A DNA stretch of 64,000 bases from Nitrosopumilus sp. (GCA_965205215.1 OZ242041.1:672001-736000), one strand, 5' to 3'. Numbered from the stretch's first letter, positions 6,639-20,877 are shown. A program made the numbers and translations. Notes: a model not told the origin generated them from the sequence alone.

Positions 6639-8470
6639 TGCATATCTAGCGCCGGCTTTACGTTCTCCCACGGATTGAAGGCCTTGTAGTAATAGGAGTA
6701 GTTCACGTCATCGCACCAGATTGTCGAGGTCACGTTTATTGTACGCGACAGGTATTCTGACGGCGAGGTGAATACGCATACACCTCCCGAATGCAGGCCT
6801 ATCAGGTTGTGCGATCCGCTGGCATTGTGGTGAATTACCGGGGCGCCGCTGTCTCCCCTTATGCTATCATAGCTGGAAATTCCCATGTTGGTAAGCGTGT
6901 TCGTGCCAGACCCGAGAGTTGCATTCTTGTACCGTAGCCATCCGTCATCGTTGGTAAATGCGCCATAGATGTTCACCTTTGACCACCGAGGGACGTCCGA
7001 AAGATTCCCATATGTGACGTTCATCACGGTTCCGTTCAACATCTGGACCTTGTTGCCTATGATTATGTTCGGATCCTCGATCGGAACGAAAGCCACATCC
7101 GCATCAACAGTGTTATGCCGTGCATCAGGATTTCGGTTTAAAATCACATAATCGTTGCCCACGGTGTGGTTGTGAAACACCTACGTGGCAGGATCAAGTG
7201 CGACATTGTGTCCTGCAGTTATGATGCCTTTGACTCCGGTGCTGGCGTTTGTCGCTCCTATCGCCATCGTGCCTGTATACCCGTATGGTCCGCTTGAATC
7301 GGCCAAGAATATCGTATAGTTGTTTCCACCATAGAACTCCAGCACTCTGGATATCATCACGTCGTCTATCCCGACATCCTCAGATGACGAACTCATGTGC
7401 GCCACGAACCTCGCTTGGAACGAGTCCGATATGTACGGGGTGATGTCGAGCCTTTCAAAGTGCCACAGGCCGTCGTCGTCCCCAGAGTTTCCGGCCCATT
7501 CTGCCAGCCGGGCCCATGTTCCGTTGCCCGTAGTCACCTCGACCCGGAGGTATTCCCCGCTGTCAAGGGTCTGGTCGACGTACCTGTAGAACGAGAGCGC
7601 CGCGCGGCCTTCAGAGGAGAGGTCGACGGAGGCCCTGGTGGCGAGCACGCACTGCGTGGTGCACCTGTCGGCCGACGCAACGCTGTTGGTATCGTTGTAC
7701 CCCGGAGGATGGACATTATCGTCAAAACTGCCAGCCTCCCACTTGTATCTGCCGGAGTTGGTCCAGTTGCCCAGCCTGTCGGTCTCAAAGTCATCCAAAA
7801 AGACGGTGGTCGACAACGTGGCGTGGGCCGGTGCGGGGGCCGGCGCCGGTGCGGGCTCCGGTTCGGGCGCCGCGCCCGGGGGCTGCCACTCGTTGTCGGA
7901 GTCCAGCACGTAGTGGTTCTGGGTTGCCAGGTTGAAGAACAGCGCCTTGCACAGGCTGCTTGCGGTGGGCGAGTCGCACCTCGAGTCATACAGCGATATC
8001 CACGGGTCTGTCTGGGACTTGGGCGACGGCGACGTGTGGCCGTCCGGGACGAATACCCCGTACTTTACGTCCATCCTTTCCCCGCCGATCTCCAGAAGGG
8101 GCGCAATGTCGGCCTCGCTATAGTCAAATCCCAATGTCGGCAGTATCGAGTCGAGTATGACGTGCAGCTTTTCCTCATCCTCGTCAACGAACGTCATGGT
8201 GAACACGATGTCGCCTGCCCGGGAATAGTCGTGTTCTGAGTGATCGATCATGATGTCGGTAATGGTGCTGTGGGCCTCGTACAGCTCGCTTACGGTGCCG
8301 ACTGGCCCGACCGCGTCGTCCTCGGGGTTCAGGCCCCCGGACACTGCAGGCCCGCCCGCCCCGCCCCCGCCGGCCGTGCCCGCGTGTGAAGTGGAATCGG
8401 CGACCGTCGCGCGCAGCGCCATCGCAGCCACGGACACGAGAAGGACGGCCGGGGCGGCAAACAGCACCAC
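6635..8470 (-). pseudogene. secreted trypsin-like (S1) serine protease with jelly-roll (MAM/cleaved-adhesin-like) domain, interrupted by in-frame TAG at 7181-7183
   Basis: ORFs 7181-8470 and 6635-7180 are contiguous in one frame; triad TAGH / DADVA / GDSGAP is split by the stop. Confidence 0.8.
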
Positions 8471-8638
8471 TCTTGGACATCCCGGACTGCTGTCTTGTGA
8501 CGCGTATTAAACGTTGACAAGAACGGGTTGTATGGACTCACCTATGTTAACCCTCGTGCGTAGTTGGCGTGTCTGTGTCGTTGCACTTCCATTCCGTGCG
8601 TGATTGGGTGGCCGGCGGTTTATAGCTTACGCTGGGGG

Positions 8639-10023
8639 TAGTTAGTTGCGCAACCCTGCCTAGAATTTCGAGATACGCCACTTTTGTGAGCTGTTTTGTG
8701 CCCCCAAGTAGAATCTTCTTCACACCGCGTCTTATGTGTGCATGACGTGATGCCCCATCAGCGATCAAGAAGATGGGGCTAACACATCAGCAACAGCATG
8801 TGCTCTCGGAGCGCGAATTTAAGCGGATTGCCGCACCGGCCGGTCCCCGTGCCCGCCTGCGGGGGAGGGCGCGCGGTTGACCTGCGGGGACGGCGGGGCG
8901 ATGAAGCGGAAGCGGAGGTCGCGGCCCGGGATGCCGCACGCGCAGAACGACGCCAGGTACGTGGCGACGGGGCGCGCGCTGGCGCTCGTCACAAGCCCGG
9001 ATGCGGGGGCGGAGCTGAGGCGTATGAACAGGGGGAAGAACGGCCGCCCGTACAAGTATCCGGAATCGCTCATAATGACGCTGGCGGGGTTCAGGAGCTA
9101 CTGCAGGCTCTCGTTTCGCGTATGCGAGGGATTTGCAGGGGGGCAGCTGGGCGGGGGGAGCGTGCCGCACTTTACCCAGATATGGAGGAGGATGAACGCG
9201 CTCGACGTCTCGGTCGGGGCCCGCGCCGTGTCGGTGCGCGGCAGGAACGGCGTGCTGAACCTGTCCATAGACGGCACCGGAATGAGCCCCAGCGGGCGCA
9301 GCGAGTACATCCGGTTCAGGCACAGGGTGGAGCACGGGTTCATCAGGTTCGTCATGGTGGTGGATACGGACACTAGGGAGATCCTCTCGTTCAGCATAAC
9401 GGACGAGACCACCGGCGAGGCGCCGCAGTTCAGGGATCTCACGCTCGAGGCCCTGGAGAACGCCGGGGTCGGCGCGGGCGCGGCAGGCCGGGTGGGGCGG
9501 GGGCCGGGGCCGGGGGCCACACCACGCGGCGGAGGGCCCGAGATAGTGATGAGGGCCGACGGCGGGTTCGACTCGCGCCCCATATTCGCATTCTGCGACA
9601 GGCTCGGGATCATACCGTACATCAGGGTGGGCATAAGCTCGGCCACGCGCTCGCGCGGCGTAAACAGGGCCAGGACCCGCGCCGTCCTCGACCAGCTCGG
9701 GGGAGGCATGCGCGATCCCCGGGAATTTGCAGAACTGACCAGGGACGAGAAGGAGGCAAACCGCAAAAAGTGGAAGAAGAGGGTCGGTTACGGCAAAAGA
9801 TGGCTGGTTGAGATTGTGATCTCGTCGTTCAAGAGGCTGTTCGGGGACTCCGTGCGTGCGGTACGCTGGAAGTACATCGCGCGGGAGATGACGCTCAAGG
9901 TGAACCTCTACAACATGATGCTGAGGGTCCAGAGGGAGGCAATGGCAGTGACATAGGGACAGTGCACCTGAACGCAATCATGGGATATGGGCATGCGGGA
10001 TGAGGGAGTTGCGCAACTAACTA
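8639..10023 (+). mobile_element. IS5-family element copy 1 (1385 bp)
   Basis: 16-bp TIR TAGTTAGTTGCGCAAC; 8-bp TSD GCTGGGGG at 8631-8638 and 10024-10031. Confidence 0.92.
8877..9956 (+). CDS. IS5-family DDE transposase
   Basis: GRPYKYP, SIDGTG, ADGGFDS, GYGKRWLVEIVISSFKRLFG motifs; start may be ATG 8901. Confidence 0.9.
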   Translation: MTCGDGGAMKRKRRSRPGMPHAQNDARYVATGRALALVTSPDAGAELRRMNRGKNGRPYKYPESLIMTLAGFRSYCRLSFRVCEGFAGGQLGGGSVPHFTQIWRRMNALDVSVGARAVSVRGRNGVLNLSIDGTGMSPSGRSEYIRFRHRVEHGFIRFVMVVDTDTREILSFSITDETTGEAPQFRDLTLEALENAGVGAGAAGRVGRGPGPGATPRGGGPEIVMRADGGFDSRPIFAFCDRLGIIPYIRVGISSATRSRGVNRARTRAVLDQLGGGMRDPREFAELTRDEKEANRKKWKKRVGYGKRWLVEIVISSFKRLFGDSVRAVRWKYIAREMTLKVNLYNMMLRVQREAMAVT

Positions 10024-10063
10024 GCTGGGGGTGGCAGCTGCCAAGACCGGGCATCCCGTAGGA

Positions 10064-11179
10064 TTACTGCCGCTTCCGGCCTGCCTTCTTGATCTTGTTC
10101 AGCTTGCGCTGGTACATTGCCTCGTTGCGTGACTTGTACGGTGTCTGGGTGCTCAGCATATGCCACATTATTGTGACCATCTTGTGCGCCACTGCCACTA
10201 TGCCGAGCGCATGCTTGTCCGCGTGCCGCCGCTTGACGGCCTCGTATACGAGTGCCATCTTCGGGTCGTGCATCACGGCCACCTGCGCGGCCTCGCACAT
10301 GGCCCAGTTTACCAAGCGGTTGGTGTTCTGCTTTTTGATGCGGTTCATCCGCGTCGAGTCGCCGGACTCGCGTACCATCGGGCAGAATCCCGCCATGGAG
10401 ACCAGCTTTTTCGGGCCCTTGAACCGCGTTATGCCGTCTATCTCCACTGCCATCAGCAGCGCGACGAACGGCCCGACGCCGGGCATGCTCATCAGCAGCC
10501 TGGCATCTTTGTTCTGCTCTGTCTCTGCAGTGAGGTGCCTGTCAGTATCCGACAGTGACTCTGTAAGGTACTGCATCTGCCTGACGTGCTTTTGCAGCAC
10601 GAACGTCTCGTTTGCGGTTCCGAGCTCGGTCGCCTCCAGCTGCCTGATGCCCTTGAGCGAGTACAGGTTTTTCGCCCCGATGCTTACGTTGTAGGCGTCA
10701 AGGATGCCGCGGATCCTGTTTATCACCTTGGTCCGGTCCTGGGTCAGCCTGACGTGGTGCCGTATCAGGGTCCTGATGCCGCGGACGTGCTTGGTCGGCA
10801 CGTGGCACGCGTCTATCATGCCGGACCGGAGGAGCACTGCAAGCTTGTGCGCATCCTCCCTGTCCGTCTTTTTTGCGCTCTTGGTGATCATCTTCAGCTT
10901 GTACGGGCTGGCCAGGAAGATGCGGACTCCAGCGTCCTCAAACGCCTCGTACGTGGTTCTCCACATGTTGGCGGTGGATTCGCAGACTGCACTGCATTCA
11001 CCCTTTTCCGCGCCGTACTTGCGCGCCATCTCCCGTGCGGCCTCCCTTGCGTCCCGTATCATGTTGGGGTACTGTCCCCTCTCGGCGACCTCCCCCATGG
11101 GATCCAGGACGCAGTAGTCACACTTTTTCTTACTGATGTCGATTCCTATGCTTGTGGTTGCTGTCATGTGTGTGTCCAT
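10064..11179 (-). CDS. IS110-family DEDD recombinase/transposase
   Basis: GIDISK, CESTA, KTDREDA (RuvC-like DEDD); PGVG and RESG catalytic Ser region. Confidence 0.95.
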   Translation of the reverse strand: MDTHMTATTSIGIDISKKKCDYCVLDPMGEVAERGQYPNMIRDAREAAREMARKYGAEKGECSAVCESTANMWRTTYEAFEDAGVRIFLASPYKLKMITKSAKKTDREDAHKLAVLLRSGMIDACHVPTKHVRGIRTLIRHHVRLTQDRTKVINRIRGILDAYNVSIGAKNLYSLKGIRQLEATELGTANETFVLQKHVRQMQYLTESLSDTDRHLTAETEQNKDARLLMSMPGVGPFVALLMAVEIDGITRFKGPKKLVSMAGFCPMVRESGDSTRMNRIKKQNTNRLVNWAMCEAAQVAVMHDPKMALVYEAVKRRHADKHALGIVAVAHKMVTIMWHMLSTQTPYKSRNEAMYQRKLNKIKKAGRKRQ

Positions 11180-11386
11180 TTTTTGTTCTCACCTCCTTTC
11201 GGATGTCTGGTTTTGACGGAACGGAAGCTGCAGTCACCTATCGGGGCGCGCAGCCCAGTTATACAGCAGCTCGGATTGCCCCATTCAGGTCGAAGAGTGC
11301 GCGGTCTGATTGTATTCCGTGTCCCATGAGTACAGAGGGGTCGCTCCATCACGCCCGTCACGACTAGAAGGGTTATCATCCAATCA
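11180..11386 (-). ncRNA. putative bridge/seek RNA region of IS110 copy A
   Basis: Reverse complement of 13033-13239, with the same target and donor matches. Confidence 0.6.
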
Positions 11387-11428
11387 GGTCGCCACATCTC
11401 ACGATTCGAGCGTATGCGAAGAACCGTC

Positions 11429-12963
11429 TCAGCATGCGGCGGCAGAAGGCGCCGCCGCTGCGGCCCGCACCGGCCGCTCGGCGCGTTCCGGGCAGTCGGG
11501 CGGCTTGAATATGCGCCAGTCGGGATCCTCGATCATGCGCTCCACCGCCATGCGCGGGAACATGCCCATCTTCTGGCACGTGCGCGCGACGGACACCAGC
11601 ACGGAGAACACGTGGCGTCCCTCGGGTTCTGACAGCTGGTGGCGCACGTTGCGGTGCAGCACTACGGTATCGCGTATCTCCAGCTCGGCGGCGTTGTTGT
11701 GGGGCGGCATGCCCGGATACCTCAGGAACGTGAACAGGTGCGGGGCGGCGCCCTCCAGCGTCTCGCGGAACCCGTGCCCTTTTTTGTAGCCCGACGCTAT
11801 GCGCAGCGCGGCCTTTTCGAGGTTCAGGCACTCGGTACTGTCAGCCGACTTGCGGTCCTTGATCCTCCCGTACAGGGAGAGCAGCCTGCGGTAGCACGAC
11901 AGGTCGTCCCCGCCGTTTCTTACGGCGTATTTCTCGGCCTCGCGCAGTATGTGGGCCCAGCAGCGCTGCCGGACCGGCAGCATGCCGTATACCGCATACC
12001 CGTCGGTGACGGCCGGCATGCCGAGCAGGCCGCCAAAGTGCAGCTCCAGCACGGCCGCGGCCCTGCTCGGGGCCGCCACGATATACGTGGCGTCCCCCGC
12101 CGTCGCCAGCCACACGTACCCGCGTTTGCCGTTCATCCTGACGACCGACTCGTCGAACTGCACGAACGCGGCGCGCGAGATACGCTCCAGGATGCCGCTG
12201 TACGCGGATCTGAGCAGGCCTCCCAGCGCCCTGCGCGCGTTCCAGACGGCGTTTGCCGACACCGAAAAGCCGTAGAGCGCCCGGAAATAGTACGATATGG
12301 TCGCGTCAGTCGACCTCTTGGCGTAGTATTCCAGTATGAACCCCAGGGCCCCCGGGCCGAACGACGTGCCGGGCAGCAGCCCGGGGGCCGGGGCGGTGCT
12401 GACCGCGCCGCACCTCCTGCAGAACCCGCGCTCCAGCACGTACGCGACCGTCTCGACGCGCCTGCTGCTTTCGTCCGGAAAGTCGTTTACGATTCTTGTG
12501 ACGGGGGCCGCGTACGCGAGGTGGCCGCGCCCGCAGTTCCGGCACCGGTACAGGCGCAGTCTCATCCTCCTAGAGGGCCTGTTGCCGTGGGACGCGCCCG
12601 CGTGCCCCTCCGGGGGCCCCTGCGCCTGCCCGCCGAACGCCCCTCCGGTTCAGGTCCGTCTTTCGCGCCGCCGTCCCCTCCGCGCCCCTCCTCTTCTGCA
12701 AGCCTCTTCCGGAACGCGTCGCGCTCCGCATTGTACATGGAACCCGTGGAGGACGGCGCGTTCGGATTCTCGTATTTGGCCAGCCTCCTGTCCTGTTCTT
12801 CAATGGTCTCCATAAGCAGGTCTATCTGCTCCTCAAGGCCTGCCCTTATCCTGTCACGCTCGGCCTCCACACGGGCGACCGCATCCTGCAGCCTCTTGAT
12901 CTCCGCCATCATCTTGGCCATCTCCCGGCGCAGCAGCGCCGTCTCGGAATCGCCCATGGACAA
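11429..12963 (-). pseudogene. IS66 transposase split by a frameshift at the G5 run 12612-12616
   Basis: Coiled coil plus NPNAPSS; after the shift PEGHAG, zinc finger, QFDES, TDGY, QRCWAHILR, NNAAELEIR. Confidence 0.88.
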
Positions 12964-13032
12964 TTCGCAGAATATATGATCTATAAGCTTGTCGGCCTAC
13001 CAAAACGACCAACAGAGTCACAGGCACGGACC

Positions 13033-13239
13033 TGATTGGATGATAACCCTTCTAGTCGTGACGGGCGTGATGGAGCGACCCCTCTGTACTCATGGGACAC
13101 GGAATACAATCAGACCGCGCACTCTTCGACCTGAATGGGGCAATCCGAGCTGCTGTATAACTGGGCTGCGCGCCCCGATAGGTGACTGCAGCTTCCGTTC
13201 CGTCAAAACCAGACATCCGAAAGGAGGTGAGAACAAAAA
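13033..13239 (+). ncRNA. putative bridge/seek RNA region of IS110 copy B
   Basis: Contains TGTACTCA (13085-92), CAATCA (13107-12), CGACCTGA (13127-34), ATAGGTGA (13178-85), matching target and donor halves; enclosing stem 13060-77/13191-204. Confidence 0.65.
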
Positions 13240-14355
13240 ATGGACACACACATGACAGCAACCACAAGCATAGGAATCGACATCAGTAAGAAAAAGTGTG
13301 ACTACTGCGTCCTGGATCCCATGGGGGAGGTCGCCGAGAGGGGACAGTACCCCAACATGATACGGGACGCAAGGGAGGCCGCACGGGAGATGGCGCGCAA
13401 GTACGGCGCGGAAAAGGGTGAATGCAGTGCAGTCTGCGAATCCACCGCCAACATGTGGAGAACCACGTACGAGGCGTTTGAGGACGCTGGAGTCCGCATC
13501 TTCCTGGCCAGCCCGTACAAGCTGAAGATGATCACCAAGAGCGCAAAAAAGACGGACAGGGAGGATGCGCACAAGCTTGCAGTGCTCCTCCGGTCCGGCA
13601 TGATAGACGCGTGCCACGTGCCGACCAAGCACGTCCGCGGCATCAGGACCCTGATACGGCACCACGTCAGGCTGACCCAGGACCGGACCAAGGTGATAAA
13701 CAGGATCCGCGGCATCCTTGACGCCTACAACGTAAGCATCGGGGCGAAAAACCTGTACTCGCTCAAGGGCATCAGGCAGCTGGAGGCGACCGAGCTCGGA
13801 ACCGCAAACGAGACGTTCGTGCTGCAAAAGCACGTCAGGCAGATGCAGTACCTTACAGAGTCACTGTCGGATACTGACAGGCACCTCACTGCAGAGACAG
13901 AGCAGAACAAAGATGCCAGGCTGCTGATGAGCATGCCCGGCGTCGGGCCGTTCGTCGCGCTGCTGATGGCAGTGGAGATAGACGGCATAACGCGGTTCAA
14001 GGGCCCGAAAAAGCTGGTCTCCATGGCGGGATTCTGCCCGATGGTACGCGAGTCCGGCGACTCGACGCGGATGAACCGCATCAAAAAGCAGAACACCAAC
14101 CGCTTGGTAAACTGGGCCATGTGCGAGGCCGCGCAGGTGGCCGTGATGCACGACCCGAAGATGGCACTCGTATACGAGGCCGTCAAGCGGCGGCACGCGG
14201 ACAAGCATGCGCTCGGCATAGTGGCAGTGGCGCACAAGATGGTCACAATAATGTGGCATATGCTGAGCACCCAGACACCGTACAAGTCACGCAACGAGGC
14301 AATGTACCAGCGCAAGCTGAACAAGATCAAGAAGGCAGGCCGGAAGCGGCAGTAA
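13240..14355 (+). CDS. IS110-family DEDD recombinase/transposase
   Basis: Identical protein to 10064-11179; GGAGGTGA RBS upstream. Confidence 0.95.
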   Translation: MDTHMTATTSIGIDISKKKCDYCVLDPMGEVAERGQYPNMIRDAREAAREMARKYGAEKGECSAVCESTANMWRTTYEAFEDAGVRIFLASPYKLKMITKSAKKTDREDAHKLAVLLRSGMIDACHVPTKHVRGIRTLIRHHVRLTQDRTKVINRIRGILDAYNVSIGAKNLYSLKGIRQLEATELGTANETFVLQKHVRQMQYLTESLSDTDRHLTAETEQNKDARLLMSMPGVGPFVALLMAVEIDGITRFKGPKKLVSMAGFCPMVRESGDSTRMNRIKKQNTNRLVNWAMCEAAQVAVMHDPKMALVYEAVKRRHADKHALGIVAVAHKMVTIMWHMLSTQTPYKSRNEAMYQRKLNKIKKAGRKRQ

Positions 14356-14395
14356 TCCTACGGGATGCCCGGTCTTGGCAGCTGCCACCCCCAGC

Positions 14396-15780
14396 TAGTT
14401 AGTTGCGCAACCCTGCCTAGAATTTCGAGATACGCCACTTTTGTGAGCTGTTTTGTGCCCCCAAGTAGAATCTTCTTCACACCGCGTCTTATGTGTGCAT
14501 GACGTGATGCCCCATCAGCGATCAAGAAGATGGGGCTAACACATCAGCAACAGCATGTGCTCTCGGAGCGCGAATTTAAGCGGATTGCCGCACCGGCCGG
14601 TCCCCGTGCCCGCCTGCGGGGGAGGGCGCGCGGTTGACCTGCGGGGACGGCGGGGCGATGAAGCGGAAGCGGAGGTCGCGGCCCGGGATGCCGCACGCGC
14701 AGAACGACGCCAGGTACGTGGCGACGGGGCGCGCGCTGGCGCTCGTCACAAGCCCGGATGCGGGGGCGGAGCTGAGGCGTATGAACAGGGGGAAGAACGG
14801 CCGCCCGTACAAGTATCCGGAATCGCTCATAATGACGCTGGCGGGGTTCAGGAGCTACTGCAGGCTCTCGTTTCGCGTATGCGAGGGATTTGCAGGGGGG
14901 CAGCTGGGCGGGGGGAGCGTGCCGCACTTTACCCAGATATGGAGGAGGATGAACGCGCTCGACGTCTCGGTCGGGGCCCGCGCCGTGTCGGTGCGCGGCA
15001 GGAACGGCGTGCTGAACCTGTCCATAGACGGCACCGGAATGAGCCCCAGCGGGCGCAGCGAGTACATCCGGTTCAGGCACAGGGTGGAGCACGGGTTCAT
15101 CAGGTTCGTCATGGTGGTGGATACGGACACTAGGGAGATCCTCTCGTTCAGCATAACGGACGAGACCACCGGCGAGGCGCCGCAGTTCAGGGATCTCACG
15201 CTCGAGGCCCTGGAGAACGCCGGGGTCGGCGCGGGCGCGGCAGGCCGGGTGGGGCGGGGGCCGGGGCCGGGGGCCACACCACGCGGCGGAGGGCCCGAGA
15301 TAGTGATGAGGGCCGACGGCGGGTTCGACTCGCGCCCCATATTCGCATTCTGCGACAGGCTCGGGATCATACCGTACATCAGGGTGGGCATAAGCTCGGC
15401 CACGCGCTCGCGCGGCGTAAACAGGGCCAGGACCCGCGCCGTCCTCGACCAGCTCGGGGGAGGCATGCGCGATCCCCGGGAATTTGCAGAACTGACCAGG
15501 GACGAGAAGGAGGCAAACCGCAAAAAGTGGAAGAAGAGGGTCGGTTACGGCAAAAGATGGCTGGTTGAGATTGTGATCTCGTCGTTCAAGAGGCTGTTCG
15601 GGGACTCCGTGCGTGCGGTACGCTGGAAGTACATCGCGCGGGAGATGACGCTCAAGGTGAACCTCTACAACATGATGCTGAGGGTCCAGAGGGAGGCAAT
15701 GGCAGTGACATAGGGACAGTGCACCTGAACGCAATCATGGGATATGGGCATGCGGGATGAGGGAGTTGCGCAACTAACTA
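14396..15780 (+). mobile_element. IS5-family element copy 2 (1385 bp)
   Basis: Same TIRs; TSD CCCCCAGC at 14388-14395 and 15781-15788. Confidence 0.92.
14634..15713 (+). CDS. IS5-family DDE transposase
   Basis: Identical protein to 8877-9956. Confidence 0.9.
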   Translation: MTCGDGGAMKRKRRSRPGMPHAQNDARYVATGRALALVTSPDAGAELRRMNRGKNGRPYKYPESLIMTLAGFRSYCRLSFRVCEGFAGGQLGGGSVPHFTQIWRRMNALDVSVGARAVSVRGRNGVLNLSIDGTGMSPSGRSEYIRFRHRVEHGFIRFVMVVDTDTREILSFSITDETTGEAPQFRDLTLEALENAGVGAGAAGRVGRGPGPGATPRGGGPEIVMRADGGFDSRPIFAFCDRLGIIPYIRVGISSATRSRGVNRARTRAVLDQLGGGMRDPREFAELTRDEKEANRKKWKKRVGYGKRWLVEIVISSFKRLFGDSVRAVRWKYIAREMTLKVNLYNMMLRVQREAMAVT

Positions 15781-15893
15781 CCCCCAGCGTAAGCTATAAA
15801 CCGCCGGCCACCCAATCACGCACGGAATGGAAGTGCAACGACACAGACACGCCAACTACGCACGAGGGTTAACATAGGTGAGTACATACAACG

Positions 15894-15978
15894 GGTTCCG
15901 TTGCTAATTCGTGACTCCTTTCAAAAAACAATCAGTTTCCATCCTTACCTGCGGAGGTCACAAATTCGCAACGGAACC
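15894..15978. mobile_element. 85-bp MITE with IS6-like terminal inverted repeats
   Basis: ~25-bp imperfect TIR GGTTCCGTTGC(T/G)AATT(C/T)GTGAC; resembles IS6-family GGTTCTGTTGC ends. Confidence 0.6.
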
Positions 15979-16025
15979 ACCTATCGCGGGAGCCGTGCAG
16001 GGCCGTGCCCTTGAGTCCCTCCGGC

Positions 16026-18323
16026 CTAGTGACAATAGCACCTGGCCGCGGCTACCTCTAGTACCTCTTTGGTCGTGAGTTCCCCGTCAACATAGTCTTG
16101 CATTGCGACATGCCACTCGCCTTCCTGTATCGCGCCGTCGCCGTTGCTGTCATACCGCTCTACCGGGGTACGCGGGTCGGGCTCGGGCTCGTCGCTTTCG
16201 GCTACCAGGCAGAACTGTTCGGTACATTCGATGACCCAGTCATCGCCGTACGTGGCTCTGTTCTTGTCATCTTTGGGTTTTTCCTGCTGCGCCTCCGCGG
16301 GCTCTGGCGCGACTACCGTGACCGTCCTGTTCTGCTGGACGGCCTGGGTGCCCGAGCTGTCGGCCACCCTGTAGTGCAGCGAGTACTCAGCGGCCACTGA
16401 CGTGTCCACGGTACCCGTGACGGTCACGTTGGCGGTTATGTTGCGGCCCGCGTGGTCGGTGGCCGCGTAGCCGGGCTCCTCCCACGCCGAGCCGAGCTGT
16501 ATGGTCATGTCGGGCGAGCCGGCCAGTGTGATCACCGGGGGCTGCGGCGGGTTCGGCGTGACTGTCTTTTGCTGCTGCTCCTCCTCCGCGGGCTCTGGCG
16601 CGACTACCGTGACCGTCCTGTTCTGCTGGACGGCCTGGGTGCCCGAGCTGTCGGCCACCCTGTAGTGCAGCGAGTACTCAGCGGCCACTGACGTGTCCAC
16701 GGTACCCGTGACGGTCACGTTGGCGGTTATGTTGCGGCCCGCGTGGTCGGTGGCCGCGTAGCCGGGCTCCTCCCACGCCGAGCCGAGCTGTATGGTCATG
16801 TCGGGCGAGCCGGCCAGTGTGATCACCGGGGGCTGCGGCGGGTTCGGCGTGACTGTCTTTTGCTGCTGCTCCTCCTCCGCGGGCTCTGGCGCGACTACCG
16901 TGACCGTCCTGTTCTGCTGGACGGCCTGGGTGCCCGAGCTGTCGGCCACCCTGTAGTGCAGCGAGTACTCAGCGGCCACTGACGTGTCCACGGTACCCGT
17001 GACGGTCACGTTGGCGGTTATGTTGCGGCCCGCGTGGTCGGTGGCCGCGTAGCCGGGCTCCTCCCACGCCGAGCCGAGCTGTATGGTCATGTCGGGCGAG
17101 CCGGCCAGTGTGATCACCGGGGGCTGCGGCGGGTTCGGCGTGACTGTCTTTTGCTGCTGCTCCTCCTCCGCGGGCTCTGGCGCGACTACCGTGACCGTCC
17201 TGTTCTGCTGGACGGCCTGGGTGCCCGAGCTGTCGGCCACCCTGTAGTGCAGCGAGTACTCAGCGGCCACTGACGTGTCCACGGTACCCGTGACGGTCAC
17301 GTTGGCGGTTATGTTGCGGCCCGCGTGGTCGGTGGCCGCGTAGCCGGGCTCCTCCCACGCCGAGCCGAGCTGTATGGTCATGTCGGGCGAGCCGGCCAGT
17401 GTGATCACCGGGGGCTGCGGCGGGTTCGGCGTGACTGTCTTTTGCTGCTGCTCCTCCTCCGCGGGCTCTGGCGCGACTACCGTGACCGTCCTGTTCTGCT
17501 GGACGGCCTGGGTGCCCGAGCTGTCGGCCACCCTGTAGTGCAGCGAGTACTCAGCGGCCACTGACGTGTCCACGGTACCCGTGACGGTCACGTTGGCGGT
17601 TATGTTGCGGCCCGCGTGGTCGGTGGCCGCGTAGCCGGGCTCCTCCCACGCCGAGCCGAGCTGTATGGTCATGTCGGGCGAGCCGGCCAGTGTGATCACC
17701 GGGGGCTGCGGCGGGTTCGGCGTGACTGTCTTTTGCTGCTGCTGCTGCTGCTGCTGCGCCTCCGCGGGCTCTGGCGCGACCACCTTGGGCTGCGGCGACT
17801 CCGCGGGAGGCGCGACGATGCACGCTTGGACGGTATCGGTCTGTGACCAGTCCATATCGGTGGCCTTCCAGTGCGCAGCCCTGCCGGGGCTGTCGGAGAA
17901 GGGAAACCTGTCGGCGCCAAAGACAAGCTCCAGGCCGTGTCGGTTCTGGATGGGCGTCTCGGTTGCAAATATCAGGTAATCCAGATCCATGTCGAGGTAC
18001 AGGTACTCTACGCCATAGTTGGCGCCCTCATAGTTAATGTGGCGGGGGGTGAGCCACTGGATGCAGGCGGCATCGTACCAGTACCAGCAGCCATGCGAGT
18101 TGCCCGCCTCGTACGTCACAAGGGTGGCGTTCCAGACGACGTCAAAGGCGCGGCCGTCGTCGGTGACGGGCACGCTGCAGGCGAAATTGCCGCTTTGAGC
18201 CGTTGGCGGGCCGTCCGAGTCACCGTCCGATTGCGCAAAGGCGTCCTCGACGGCCGTGACATTCGACAGGCCGTACGCCGCGACTGCCAAAAGGACGATC
18301 ATCGCACAGAGCCCGGGCTTCAT
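16026..18323 (-). CDS. secreted surface protein with five DUF5011/Ig-like repeats and C-terminal EF-hand/dockerin-like domain
   Basis: Signal peptide ending AFA; PVITLAG..WEEPGYAATD..G.VDTS...YSLHYRVADSSG repeats; YDSNGDGAIQ; ends ARCYCH. Confidence 0.85.
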   Translation of the reverse strand: MKPGLCAMIVLLAVAAYGLSNVTAVEDAFAQSDGDSDGPPTAQSGNFACSVPVTDDGRAFDVVWNATLVTYEAGNSHGCWYWYDAACIQWLTPRHINYEGANYGVEYLYLDMDLDYLIFATETPIQNRHGLELVFGADRFPFSDSPGRAAHWKATDMDWSQTDTVQACIVAPPAESPQPKVVAPEPAEAQQQQQQQQKTVTPNPPQPPVITLAGSPDMTIQLGSAWEEPGYAATDHAGRNITANVTVTGTVDTSVAAEYSLHYRVADSSGTQAVQQNRTVTVVAPEPAEEEQQQKTVTPNPPQPPVITLAGSPDMTIQLGSAWEEPGYAATDHAGRNITANVTVTGTVDTSVAAEYSLHYRVADSSGTQAVQQNRTVTVVAPEPAEEEQQQKTVTPNPPQPPVITLAGSPDMTIQLGSAWEEPGYAATDHAGRNITANVTVTGTVDTSVAAEYSLHYRVADSSGTQAVQQNRTVTVVAPEPAEEEQQQKTVTPNPPQPPVITLAGSPDMTIQLGSAWEEPGYAATDHAGRNITANVTVTGTVDTSVAAEYSLHYRVADSSGTQAVQQNRTVTVVAPEPAEEEQQQKTVTPNPPQPPVITLAGSPDMTIQLGSAWEEPGYAATDHAGRNITANVTVTGTVDTSVAAEYSLHYRVADSSGTQAVQQNRTVTVVAPEPAEAQQEKPKDDKNRATYGDDWVIECTEQFCLVAESDEPEPDPRTPVERYDSNGDGAIQEGEWHVAMQDYVDGELTTKEVLEVAAARCYCH
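16292..17779. repeat. 291-bp tandem repeat, five near-perfect copies
   Basis: Units recur at 16299, 16590, 16881, 17172, 17463; (CAG)n poly-Q linker. Confidence 0.95.
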
Positions 18324-18334
18324 CGGTGTTCGAC

Positions 18335-18355
18335 GGGGGGGGGGGGGTATAATAA
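18335..18355 (-). promoter_or_regulatory. TATA box followed by a C13 tract upstream of the surface protein gene
   Basis: Minus strand reads TTATTATA-C13-GTCGAACACCG-ATG; TATA about 24 nt from ATG. Confidence 0.55.
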
Positions 18356-18662
18356 CCTTAACCAATAATTCGAGAAAATATGTACAAACATTAACTATTG
18401 GACAGATCAAATTGGCATATGTTTGGCAGCCTTTCTGCCGGGTACCGGGTGGGTTCTGGCCCCGAATGGGGATTTTTTGGATTACAAGGCGGCCGGATCT
18501 GCGGGTGTTGGCCGGTCCGGGGCCCTGCCGGTGCCCGGGCGCCCGACACCCGCGAGGCGCCCGCCGCGGGCGGCCTGCCGTGCGCCCCGGTTTTCACGGT
18601 ACATGGCAACCCCCCCACCGTCCTTCGGGAACGGTGCCGGATTCGGCATGATCCTGTCCGCT

Positions 18663-19584: not shown

Positions 19585-20426
19585 CACTTGTGTAACCCCT
19601 CAGACATGATTGGCGCGACTGTCGCCGCACTTCCATTCCGTGCGCGGTTGGGTGGCCGGCGGTTTGTGGATTACACGGGGGGGGGGGGTGGCAGCTGCCG
19701 GGATCGGGCATCCCGCAGGATTGCCGCCGCCCCCGGCCCGCCCCCTTGATCTTGTTCAGCTTGCGCCGGTACATTGCCCCGTTGCGTGGCCCGTACGGTG
19801 TCCCGGTGCCGCGGACGCGCCCGGTCGGCACGCGGCACGCGTCTATCATGCCGGACCGGAGGGGCACCGCAAGCCTGCGCGCGTCCTCCCCGTCCGTCTT
19901 TTTTGCGCTCCCTGTGATCATCTTCAGCCTGTACGGGCTGGCCGGGGGATGCGCGCCCCCGCGTCCCCAAACGCCTCGTGCGTGGCACGCCACATGCCGG
20001 CGGCGGACACACAGACTGCCCCGCATCCTCCATTTTTCGCGCCGTACCTGCGCGCCATCCCCCGCGCCGCCCGTCCCGCGCCCCGCATCGCGTTGTGGTA
20101 CCGCCCACTCTCGACGGCCACCCCCCCCGGGATCCGGGGCGCAACAGTCGCGCTTTTTCTTGCTGATGTCGATTCCTGTGCTTGCGGTTGCTGCCATGCG
20201 CGCGTGTCCATTTTTTGTCCTCGCCTCCCCTAGAATGCCTGGTTTTAACTGAACGGAAGCTGCGGCCACCTATCGGGGGCGCGCAGCCCTGCCATGCAGC
20301 AGCCCGGATTGCCCCATTCGGGTCCGGGAGTGCGCGGCCTGGCCGTATTCCGTGCCCCGTGAGTCCGGAGGGGTCGCTCCACCACGCCCGTCACGACGGG
20401 GGGGGGGGGAGGTTGTCATCCAATCA
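19585..20426 (-). mobile_element. decayed, internally deleted IS110 copy lacking the IS5 insertion
   Basis: Aligns to both ends of copy A; about 630 bp of the transposase missing; frameshifts. Confidence 0.9.
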
Positions 20427-20503: not shown

Positions 20504-20731
20504 GTATGGTCTCACGTCGGCACGTCTCGCGAATCGAGCGCATGCTAAGAACCGCCCCGGCATGTCGCGGCGGCAGCGGCGGCAGCAGAAGGCGCCGCCG
20601 CTGCAGCCCGCACCGGCCGCTCGGCGCCCCCCGGGCAGTCGTCGGGCGGCTTGAACATGTGCCAGTTCGGATCCTCGATCATGCGCTCCGCCGCCATGCG
20701 CGGGAGCATGCCCATCTTCTGGCACGTGCGC
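20504..20731 (-). mobile_element. IS66 3'-end remnant with uninterrupted TIR
   Basis: GTATGGTCTCACGTCGGCAC, then homology to 11391-11585. Confidence 0.85.
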
Positions 20732-20877
20732 AATCTAATTTATAAACATGTGAAATGGTTATTTGCTATGTTGCAGCGGAATGCAGTTTTTAGCCCTGCC
20801 TCTCCATGCGCGGCCGGCCATCCCGGCCCGCGTGCCATGCGCAGTGAGGCCTCTCGGGGGGGGGGGGGTGACTCCAT

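Follow-up and report, generated by a model that had tools for sequence, protein, structure and literature searches.

Two IS110-family elements with a predicted guide RNA occupy both terminal inverted repeats of an IS66 element in a Nitrosopumilus genome

The window analysed here, a stretch of 64,000 nucleotides, comprises positions 672001-736000 of the single-contig genome of a Nitrosopumilus sp. (GCA_965205215.1, OZ242041.1; 2.098 Mb, 60% G+C). It contains a nested block of 7.4 kb which was very probably formed by the insertion of an insertion sequence (IS) of the IS66 family, the presumably RNA-guided occupation of both of its terminal inverted repeats (TIRs) by an IS110-family element, and the entry of an IS5-family element into each IS110 copy. 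New in this analysis is a predicted two-loop guide RNA at the left end of the IS110 element, the guides of which covary with the flanking sequences across 30 relatives. A preliminary description of the block had included neither the RNA-guided mechanism nor the non-mirrored orientation of the IS5 copies nor the fact that the targeting of ISs by this family is already on record for IS4321/IS5075 and ISEc21. The nest is a clean natural case of a known targeting mechanism in an archaeon, not a new mechanism.

The block is composed as follows (positions refer to the window):

8522 to 8529, no strand: left 8-bp IS66 target-site duplication AACGGGTT (sequence; single copy at the empty site in run X11)
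8530 to 8540, plus strand: outer 11 bp of the left IS66 TIR, GTATGGACTCA, severed from the remainder of the TIR by IS110 copy A (sequence)
8541 to 11386, minus strand: IS110-family copy A (100% inverted identity to copy B; ends from 27-33 relatives and the X11 TIR)
11387 to 13032, minus strand: IS66 core with a frameshifted transposase gene (open reading frames (ORFs), Pfam, comparison with sister copies)
13033 to 15878, plus strand: IS110-family copy B, including IS5 copy 2 (inverted identity; end alignments)
15879 to 15889, minus strand: outer 11 bp of the right IS66 TIR, GTATGTACTCA (sequence)
15890 to 15897, no strand: right copy of the 8-bp duplication AACGGGTT (sequence and X11 contig)

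The two AACGGGTT copies thus bound the whole block. Each of the two IS110 units of 2846 bp consists of 1453 bp of IS110 sequence, an IS5 element of 1385 bp and an 8-bp duplication, whereas the IS66 core (1646 bp) and the two 11-bp tips add up to an element of 1668 bp with the TIRs GTATG(G/T)ACTCAGGTC. The positions of the duplications, the IS110 units, the 1668-bp IS66 and its TIRs given in the preliminary description were all recovered in the sequence. According to the repeat finder the IS110 parts form inverted arms of 1383 nt (10008-11390 and 13029-14411) with 100% complementarity, accompanied by an outer inverted pair of 134 nt and a direct repeat at a spacing of 5757 nt. Both IS5 copies (8639-10023 and 14396-15780), identical at 1385/1385 positions, lie on the plus strand. 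Since they are direct repeats, neither 2846-bp unit mirrors the other, and the symmetry initially proposed for all three levels holds for the IS110 parts but not for the IS5 level. Similarly, the shared position of both IS110 copies was confirmed, but their distance of 11 bp from the IS66 tip is better given as 9-11 bp, since a CA dinucleotide on either side of the element (ACT[CA]CCTATG...CCAAT[CA]GGTC) leaves an ambiguity of 2 nt.

Long perfect inverted (1383 bp) and direct (1385 bp) repeats are hard to assemble, and a mis-joining of repeated IS copies had been named as something that would refute the block. We compared positions 12900-16000 with Logan contigs of four runs (X1, X8, X10 and X11) from four studies. 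In X8 the IS110 unitig (13029-14411) and the IS5 unitig had depths of 89.8 and 92.7, while the 44-nt junction bridges (records 21 and 23) reached 48 and 47.5 and the outer-flank contigs (records 25 and 26) 48.8 and 53; its loose ends at 14411 and 15765 coincide exactly with the junctions of copy A. Repeats of about 90x next to junctions and flanks of about 48-53x indicate two copies of each element and one of each junction, consistent with the assembled structure. A contig of X10 covers 14434-16000 without a single difference, running from IS5 through the IS110 end and the IS66 tip into the flank, and the genome itself is a single 2.1-Mb contig. The block is real and neither due to chance nor to a mis-join; we regard an assembly artefact as extremely improbable.

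Run X11, which appears to represent a related strain, provided both empty sites. In a contig of 3338 nt (record 18) the sequence ...AAACGCTGACAAG is joined straight to position 15890, which corresponds to the empty chromosomal site with a single AACGGGTT and thereby confirms the 8-bp duplication; the left-flank sequence at this junction was also recorded as ...GTATTAAACGCTGACAAG. In records 12 and 13 the IS66 interior continues up to 13035 and is followed by GTCCATAC, i.e. left target, TG and right target without IS110. This uninterrupted right TIR of the same IS66 type (..GGACC-TG-AGTCCATAC) fixes the IS110 boundaries and shows a single core dinucleotide. The contigs of X10, X11 and X1 do not cover the IS110 body (13212-14355), which does not imply its absence.

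The transposase of the IS110 element and its subterminal repeats are located as follows:

10064 to 11179, minus strand: IS110 DEDD transposase of copy A, 371 aa (PF01548 and PF02371; NF033542)
13240 to 14355, plus strand: IS110 DEDD transposase of copy B (ORF, Pfam, NCBIfam)
13040 to 13050, plus strand: left subterminal inverted repeat ATGATAACCCT, preceded by the 7-bp extension TGATTGG (end alignments)
15865 to 15875: right subterminal repeat AGGGTTAACAT, the partner of ATGATAACCCT, followed by AGG (end alignments)

The protein matched PF01548 (DEDD_Tnp_IS110; 4.3e-26) and PF02371 (Transposase_20; 6.6e-21) as well as the NCBIfam model NF033542, "IS110 family RNA-guided transposase", with 227.8 bits (cutoff 140). 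Its DEDD region aligns with the ISCro4 and IS621 chains, and the segment GFCPMVRESG fits the motif G--P----SG.

A scan of genome contigs with this transposase yielded 42 loci, the left ends of which (280 nt upstream of the transposase gene) were aligned. They share a conserved scaffold, ...GACCCCT-N9-TGGG...CC-TT-N9-AATGGGG...AGCTGCTG...GATAGGTG...GCAGCTT..., with two variable 9-mers. In IS621 the left target guide (LTG) equals the top strand of the left target plus core, and the right target guide (RTG) is the reverse complement of core plus right target (PMC11208160). Following these rules, each variable segment was compared with the flanks of its own element. The LTG agreed with its own left flank at 4.6 of the 5 nt next to the core, compared to 1.68 in cross pairs (30 elements, 17 distinct guides), and the RTG with its own right flank at 3.74 of 7 nt, compared to 2.25 (27 elements, 19 distinct guides); in neither case did any of 10000 permutations reach the observed value. 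The core dinucleotide within the LTG, TG or AG, agreed with the flank in 30/30 elements. These counts leave out loci L021, L024, L031 and L034, for which no guides or flanks were extracted, and a degraded copy in the source genome, which has no flank; the left flank of L002 was taken from the left-end alignment.

In the consensus structure predicted by RNAalifold from 19 sequences, RTG and LTG face each other across a single internal loop with CCCC/GGGG as its closing pairs. A second loop, which AGCUGC/GCAGCU closes, holds GAUAGGUGA, which corresponds to the right end, the core and the first base of the left end, and the same composition is found in the left donor guide (LDG) of the nest element. 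In the resulting four-helix structure 94.4% of the cells are paired, compared to 28-61% with slid partners, and four pairs show compensatory changes. On this basis the left end of the IS110 element is predicted to encode a two-loop bridge/seek RNA:

11216 to 11342, minus strand: putative bridge/seek RNA scaffold of copy A (RTG 11327-11335, LTG 11286-11294, LDG 11234-11242)
13077 to 13203, plus strand: putative bridge/seek RNA scaffold of copy B (guide-flank covariation, consensus structure)
13084 to 13092, plus strand: predicted target loop of copy B, RTG CTGTACTCA
13125 to 13133, plus strand: predicted target loop of copy B, LTG TTCGACCTG
13177 to 13185, plus strand: predicted donor loop of copy B, LDG GATAGGTGA

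Together, the guides of the nest element specify TGTACT-CA-GGTCG, which lies 3-15 bp inside the IS66 tip, and match the left TIR (..TGGACTCAGGTCG..) as well as the right TIR (..TGTACTCAGGTCC..) at 12/13 positions. Only one other site with at most one mismatch was present in the intact genome, where about two would be expected from the base composition.

From the observed anatomy, copy numbers, empty sites, guide-flank covariation and guide-TIR match we infer that the RNA is made and used, and the following order of events. The 1668-bp single-ORF IS66 would have inserted between two genes, thereby generating the 8-bp duplication AACGGGTT. Next, the same IS110/IS1111-type element, equipped with a DEDD transposase and its own guide RNA, would have occupied the two TIRs. 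In the two internal loops of this left-end RNA, an RTG (CTGTACTCA) corresponding to the reverse complement of core and right flank would act together with an LTG (..CGACCTG) corresponding to left flank and core. Since the two IS66 TIRs are inverted copies of the target, two guided insertions would result in mirrored IS110 copies. Each insertion leaves 11 bp of a TIR at the tip which, together with the frameshift, most likely immobilises the IS66 until the IS110 excises. Finally, an IS5 producing an 8-bp duplication would have entered each IS110 between the transposase stop codon and a TATA-like motif at the right end.

Several points weigh against this account. Neither TIR of the nest matches the guides perfectly, and five intact IS66 copies in the genome are free of IS110 despite only two mismatches in their left TIRs. 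In the closest relative (L001) the left flank is as predicted (..AGACC/TG, the slash marking the junction), but the right flank agrees with the RTG at only 3/7 positions, and the RTG signal as a whole is weaker than that of the LTG. The left end of the nest element starts with ATTGGA, unlike the loop segment which fits most relatives, and no convincing right donor guide was found for it. The fold of its left end as a single sequence was no better than that of shuffled sequences (z = 0.23), and an Rfam scan of positions 8000-16500 gave no match at E <= 1. Nor does the account explain why the two IS5 copies face opposite ways within their hosts.

Apart from the two nest copies, BLAST detected only a single degraded relic of this IS110 lineage in the genome:

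19590 to 20426, minus strand: degraded third IS110 copy (82-86% identity, internal deletion of about 600 bp, without IS5; BLAST, alignment)
20506 to 20731, plus strand: truncated left end of another IS66 copy (GTATGGTCTCACGTCGGCACG...; BLAST)

The left end of the relic abuts the interior of an IS66 right end (...CCAATCA/GGTCCACGCC); this junction reads ...CATCCAATCA/GGTCCACGCCCGTC... At the RTG position the relic carries CGGACTCA, which matches the G-variant of the tip. All three copies of the lineage in the genome (3/3) therefore adjoin an IS66 end at the same position, ...CCAATCA/GGTC. The TIRs of the other IS66 copies deviate from the guide by two mismatches on the left and three on the right, one of the latter next to the core.

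The relic further shows a strongly GC-directed decay. In a comparison of 19791-20426 with 13033-13659 and L001:2794-3425, limited to 625 collinear nt and polarised with L001, 80 changes were assigned to the relic branch. Of these, 63 were AT->GC (A>G 39 and T>C 23 in the IS110 sense) and 12 GC->AT, corresponding to about 27% of the AT sites and 3.6% of the GC sites. The nest branch has the opposite bias with 21/24 changes GC->AT. The G+C content is 67% in the relic, 58% in the live copy and 60% in the genome. In a thaumarchaeon of such high G+C content, the decay could provide a neutral record of an unusual bias towards AT->GC in mutation or conversion.

A fourth, unrelated IS110-family element is intact (genome positions 1053193-1054251; 43% aa identity). 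It is not located in a TIR; tandem repeats adjoin it, (GCT)n(GTT)n on one side and (TGTGGTTG)n on the other, and its guides (..TTGTTGT-TG; RTG ACCCACACA) match these repeat flanks.

Judged by their record titles, 41 of the 42 loci retrieved with the transposase derive from Nitrosopumilaceae, Nitrosopumilus, Cenarchaeum, Nitrososphaerales or Thaumarchaeota and one from Gemmatimonadales. Homologues (E <= 1e-20) occurred in 29 of the 151 genomes sampled from the taxonomic family, including the source genome. A scan of metagenomes with the transposase added 15 loci, mostly on contigs of 1.2-3 kb ending at the element (best identity 69%), none of which was a further copy of the nest IS110 lineage. 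An exact-motif scan for the end and tip motifs of the nest matched 2/42 loci and was too strict. With the IS66 and IS5 proteins of the nest as queries, tblastn detected a gene of this kind within the 3-kb flanks of 16/42 loci.

After computational removal of IS110, we searched for inverted partners of the target, regarding at least 18/26 matches as clear against a background of 14-17. A clear partner, 125-1943 bp away, was found at 5/27 scored loci (L002, L007, L010, L015 and L025), and L009 (16) and L022 (17) were borderline with 12 contiguous matches each. Recurrent target types were ..TAGTCTGT-TG-CACAACT at L007, L010 and L029, and ..TTGT-TG-C(G/C)CAACTCA, an IS5-type TIR, at L015, L016 and L020. 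The latter three share the motif GT-TG-CGCAAC with the TIR of the nest's own IS5 (TAGTTAGT-TG-CGCAAC), and at L016 (Nitrososphaerales) two mirrored IS110 copies fill both TIRs of one IS5-like element. Altogether, the sites of the relatives comprise TIRs of IS5-like or IS66-like elements or of MITEs (miniature inverted-repeat transposable elements). No recognisable TIR was found at L004/L032, L011, L014, L018 or the 43% element of the source genome; since some lineages lack one, homing on TIRs seems to be common in the clade but not universal. The expectation that every copy would be flanked by an IS66 TIR was thus borne out within the genome (3/3) but not among the relatives. The more general proposal of an archaeal IS110 homing on IS66 TIRs in the manner of IS4321/IS5075 gained support from guides that spell the TIR, from the 3/3 copies and from the 41/42 thaumarchaeal loci.

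It is conceivable, though rather doubtful, that this thaumarchaeal IS1111-like clade constitutes a guild of TIR-homing hyperparasites, the guides of which track the ends of IS66-like elements, IS5-like elements and MITEs, with both-end occupation as the usual and reversibly silencing state. IS5 would then sit or flip at a fixed site of IS110, while IS110 relatives would enter IS5-type TIRs with GT-TG-CGCAAC.

A contig shared with L001 (L002:4215-6900) carries an IS66-like gene (36% aa identity) beside the IS110 of L002. At the partner TIR, located 1943 bp from it, a further right-end junction of an IS110 is found (..CATAGG-TG-TCCAACCCC), followed by fragments in mixed orientation with 73-93% identity to the nest IS66. 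This locus is a second, decayed IS110/IS66 nest in another metagenome-assembled genome of the Nitrosopumilaceae.

At the right border of the block lies a further small element of 85 nt (15894-15978) with inverted arms of 22 nt (GGTTCCGTTGC...GCAACGGAACC), a 93% copy of which is found at genome positions 1107678-1107763. It shares its first 4 nt with the IS66 duplication AACGGGTT, and its arm GTCACAAATTCGCAAC resembles the IS110 target at L022 (GTCACGAATTCGCAAC-AG). This element may be a MITE on which another IS110 lineage homes.

The IS66 host encodes its transposase in two ORFs, one of 133 aa with a coiled coil (12562-12963) and one of 378 aa (11429-12565, minus strand), the latter matching DDE_Tnp_IS66 (PF03050; 1.7e-22). 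Owing to the split gene, the NCBIfam model NF033517 did not reach its cutoff of 180 bits (score 151). BLAST revealed five further IS66 copies in the genome with 90% identity, each containing one intact transposase ORF of 505 aa and bounded by 8-bp duplications, with the TIRs GTATAGACTCAGGTCGCC (left) and GTATGGACTCACGTCCATGCC (right). An 8-bp duplication and a start with GTAAG are typical of IS66. All copies including the nested one have the 8-bp duplication, and the DDE_Tnp_IS66 transposase and TIRs starting with GTA(A/T)G likewise agree with this family. The accessory tnpA and tnpB ORFs of canonical IS66 elements are missing, the 1650-1668 bp holding only one transposase frame; the nested element is a single-ORF type of its family.

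Given the frameshift in its transposase gene and the five intact relatives, the nested IS66 is probably immobilised. The alternative, that the 11-bp tips suffice for an IS66 transposase acting in trans and the nest hitchhikes as a mobile 7.4-kb block, is very improbable. The AACGGGTT duplication does flank the entire block, and the five intact 505-aa transposase genes (90% identity) could act in trans, but the duplication is equally explained by the IS66 inserting first. BLAST of the parts found no second copy of the block in the source genome, and a query with the whole block found no IS110 or IS5 DNA above about 83% identity in 40 other genomes; a further copy of the 7.4-kb unit, which the preliminary description had proposed to look for at other 8-bp duplications, did not turn up. 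Furthermore, X11 possesses this IS66 type with an uninterrupted right end, and the IS110 right end next to the IS66 tip bears no sequence resemblance to the lost part of the TIR. Of the two outcomes envisaged in the preliminary description, immobilisation, presumably reversible only through excision of the IS110, therefore appears likelier than hitchhiking.

Two further IS66 arrangements were observed in the genome. At 870572-873858 two copies lie head-to-tail with the same 8 bp, ACTGATTA, to the left, between and to the right of them; this tandem pair corresponds to the IS dimers that occur as intermediates or products of transposition. At 169879-170274 four IS66-type TIRs (GTATGCACTCAG.. / GTATGGACTCACGTCC..) form two close pairs at distances of about 60-75 bp; they resemble miniature derivatives of IS66 and lack IS110.

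The innermost level of the nest is formed by the IS5 copies:

8639 to 10023, plus strand: IS5 copy 1 with 16-bp TIRs TAGTTAGTTGCGCAAC and ORF 8877-9956 (repeats, Pfam, NCBIfam)
8631 to 8638 and 10024 to 10031: 8-bp duplication GCTGGGGG around IS5 copy 1
14396 to 15780, plus strand: IS5 copy 2, inverted relative to its IS110 host (BLAST; X8 junction bridges of about 48x)
14388 to 14395 and 15781 to 15788: 8-bp duplication CCCCCAGC around IS5 copy 2, the complement of GCTGGGGG
15793 to 15802, plus strand: conserved TATA-like GCTATAAACC at the IS110 right end, just past the IS5 insertion point (right-end alignment)
8617 to 8626, minus strand: equivalent of the TATA-like motif in copy A

The plus-strand ORF 8877-9956 matched PF01609 (DDE_Tnp_1), PF13737 and NF033579 (154.4 bits, cutoff 140), and this model match, the perfect 16-bp TIRs and the 8-bp duplication assign the element to the IS5 family. 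Only the two nest copies and two distant relatives (70%) were detected in the genome by BLAST. The two IS5 copies are inserted at mirror-equivalent positions of their IS110 hosts and share the 8-bp duplication, but their orientations within the host are opposite. The site is located 40 bp past the transposase stop codon beside the palindrome TGGCAGCTGCCA and, in the IS110 sense, immediately upstream of a motif conserved throughout the clade in the right-end alignment (..AGCG(T)TAGCTATAAA..); the transposase gene, guides and ends of the IS110 are spared. It is empty in L001 and in the relic. Over about 1389 nt, the IS5 of X11 shows 5 differing letters and an insertion of 6 nt, and its flanks are others.

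Two routes to the opposite orientations were rejected. Copying of the IS110::IS5 composite alone cannot produce them, and homologous recombination was discarded on theoretical grounds, as every crossover between the inverted copies A and B flips only the segment in between while the orientation of IS5 within IS110 is kept. The reading as a composite transposon (IS5-4.4 kb-IS5) was dismissed since its outer flanks, GCTGGGGG and CCCCCAGC, are reverse complements and not direct repeats.

Two explanations appear about equally plausible, each of them held tentatively. There may have been two separate IS5 insertions, one in each IS110 copy and one in either orientation, at a shared site, GCTGGGGG, which would be a strong hot spot beside TGGCAGCTGCCA. 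The identical position and duplication in both copies, which are the only ones of this IS5 in the genome, are in line with such a preference, and one IS5 copy in X11 is apparently flanked by (T/C)CCCATGC, which resembles CCCCCAGC (loose ends at 14394 and 15784). However, the IS5 has at least three different flanks outside IS110 in this run, one of them unlike the nest site (...CGCGACAGAA), the corresponding sites in L001 and the relic are unoccupied, and two insertions at one site with none elsewhere demand a very strong preference. Alternatively, the composite may have been copied to the second TIR with a subsequent inversion of one IS5 in place, which may still flip; recombination between the 16-bp TIRs or excision and re-insertion could achieve this. 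Such an inversion accounts for the presence of both IS5 copies at the same site and nowhere else and for the 100% identity of IS110 and of IS5 between the copies, and the equal depth of the X8 bridges (48 and 47.5x) with alternative branches at 14411/15765 fits a fixed as well as a fast-flipping state. On the other hand, 16 bp are short for homologous recombination, and the X10 contig, which has the orientation of the assembly at copy B, weakly favours a fixed state. We know of no mechanism for the in-place inversion of an IS5-family element.

The right end of the IS110 element contains ACGGAATGGAAG (15822-15833), complementary to CTTCCGTTCCGT (13192-13203) just past the donor loop; in copy A the pair lies at 8586-8597 and 11216-11227. 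The two segments covary in relatives (e.g. AUGAGACGG / CCGUUUCAU in L004), and RNAalifold pairs ACGGAATGGAAG with CTTCCGTTCCGT in modelled transcripts from the right end across the junction to the left end. Together with the TATA-like GCTATAAACC, a putative promoter, this end pairing suggests that a guide-RNA precursor may be transcribed across the circle junction.

Directly to the right of the block, a 794-aa ORF (16026-18410, minus strand) with five Bact_surface_Ig-like repeats (Pfam; E = 3e-102) encodes a probable cell-surface protein of the symbiont. In the whole genome 62 homopolymeric G/C runs of 10-17 nt were counted which, with three 10-nt exceptions, appear on the plus strand as poly-C from 62 to 411 kb, as poly-G from 482 to 1476 kb and once more as poly-C from 1534 to 2013 kb; the strand switches twice, as if tied to the replication direction. 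Four runs belong to the window (18335-18347, 19677-19688, 20398-20409 and 20856-20868), three of them within or next to the IS110/IS66 relic, at places which are of mixed sequence in the live copy.

The element was filed in the IS110/IS1111 superfamily. In agreement with this placement, its transposase combines an N-terminal DEDD RuvC-like domain with a C-terminal Transposase_20 domain, its LTG and RTG covary with the flanks, the LDG fits and the consensus structure has two loops. Its insertion is specific for site and orientation, as seen from CA/TG at both junctions, the empty site in X11 and the common position of the 3/3 copies. Subterminal inverted repeats of 11-13 bp with extensions of 7 bp on the left and 3 bp on the right are a hallmark of IS1111 elements (PMC11187229); the nest element has 11-bp repeats, complementary at 10/11 positions, with exactly these extensions. 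However, both target guides and the LDG lie within 207 bp upstream of the transposase gene and not downstream as in the IS1111 subgroup, and no target-matching segment was found in the conserved region of about 138 bp downstream. An upstream position corresponds to the IS110-type arrangement (PMC11187229, PMC11208160); ISMtsp17, ISHvo10 and ISAcp5 have been named as exceptions among IS1111-like elements (PMC11187229). The IS110 subgroup in the sense of IS621, in which subterminal repeats are absent or only 2-3 bp long and the LTG comes first, does not fit either, given the 11-bp subterminal repeat and the position of the RTG before the LTG. In IS1111 elements the guide complementary to the top strand comes first (PMC11187229), and the same order is found here, provided that "top strand" is defined alike. 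The element hence has IS1111-like ends without a guide region downstream of its transposase gene.

The RNA-guided targeting of IS110/IS1111 elements and their homing on other mobile elements, as in IS4321/IS5075 and ISEc21, have already been published. Full-text searches yielded no account of IS110-family elements homing on IS66 or IS5 TIRs or of such elements in Thaumarchaeota; the supplementary target tables of the two 2024 papers on bridge RNA and seekRNA may list such cases. What makes the nest valuable are guide/target pairs that can be read from the sequence, an archaeal host, the repeated finding of both ends occupied and the puzzling IS5 orientation, which points to either a very site-specific IS5-family element or an in-place inversion of an IS. 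Since guide, target and both the empty and the occupied target are contained in public data, the targeting rules of the family become testable beyond a few bacterial models, and the diversified relatives, with 17 distinct LTGs among 30 elements, supply ready pairs of guide and target whose core is TG or AG. The nest also illustrates that transposons in small symbiont genomes can be restrained by other transposons, the nested IS66 being probably disabled in two ways and its five sisters intact.

Among the known systems, IS4321/IS5075 of the IS1111 family, which insert into the TIRs of Tn21-family transposons in bacteria (Partridge & Hall 2003), are similar in being DEDD elements with subterminal inverted repeats that use one position and one orientation in the TIRs of another transposon family, so that both TIRs can be occupied in mirror orientation. 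They differ in their bacterial hosts and the 38-bp Tn21-family TIR, compared to a thaumarchaeon and an IS66 TIR; moreover, typical IS1111 members carry the guide-RNA region downstream of the transposase gene, whereas the predicted guides of the nest element lie upstream. ISEc21 of the IS110 family resembles the nest element as a seekRNA-guided element with an upstream non-coding region and a target inside other ISs (PMC11187229). Unlike the nest element, it is described there as targeting the codons around the DDE motif's second D in IS3-family genes instead of a TIR, and as lacking long subterminal inverted repeats (PMC11187229). IS621 (PMC11208160; PDB 8wt6) shares the left-end RNA with target and donor loops, the LTG equivalent to left target and core on the top strand, the RTG complementary to core and right target, and a core dinucleotide duplicated at both junctions (PMC11208160). 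Its protein is only distantly similar (E = 5.7e-11, N-terminal domain), its core is CT compared to TG/AG in the clade of the nest element, and it differs from the latter in the RTG-first order and the 11-bp subterminal repeats. Comparable in layout, by their description (PMC11187229), are ISMtsp17, an IS1111-like element with a long non-coding region upstream, and ISHvo10 and ISAcp5, which are IS1111-like with non-coding regions on both sides, as compared to 207 bp upstream and about 138 bp downstream of the nest element's transposase gene.

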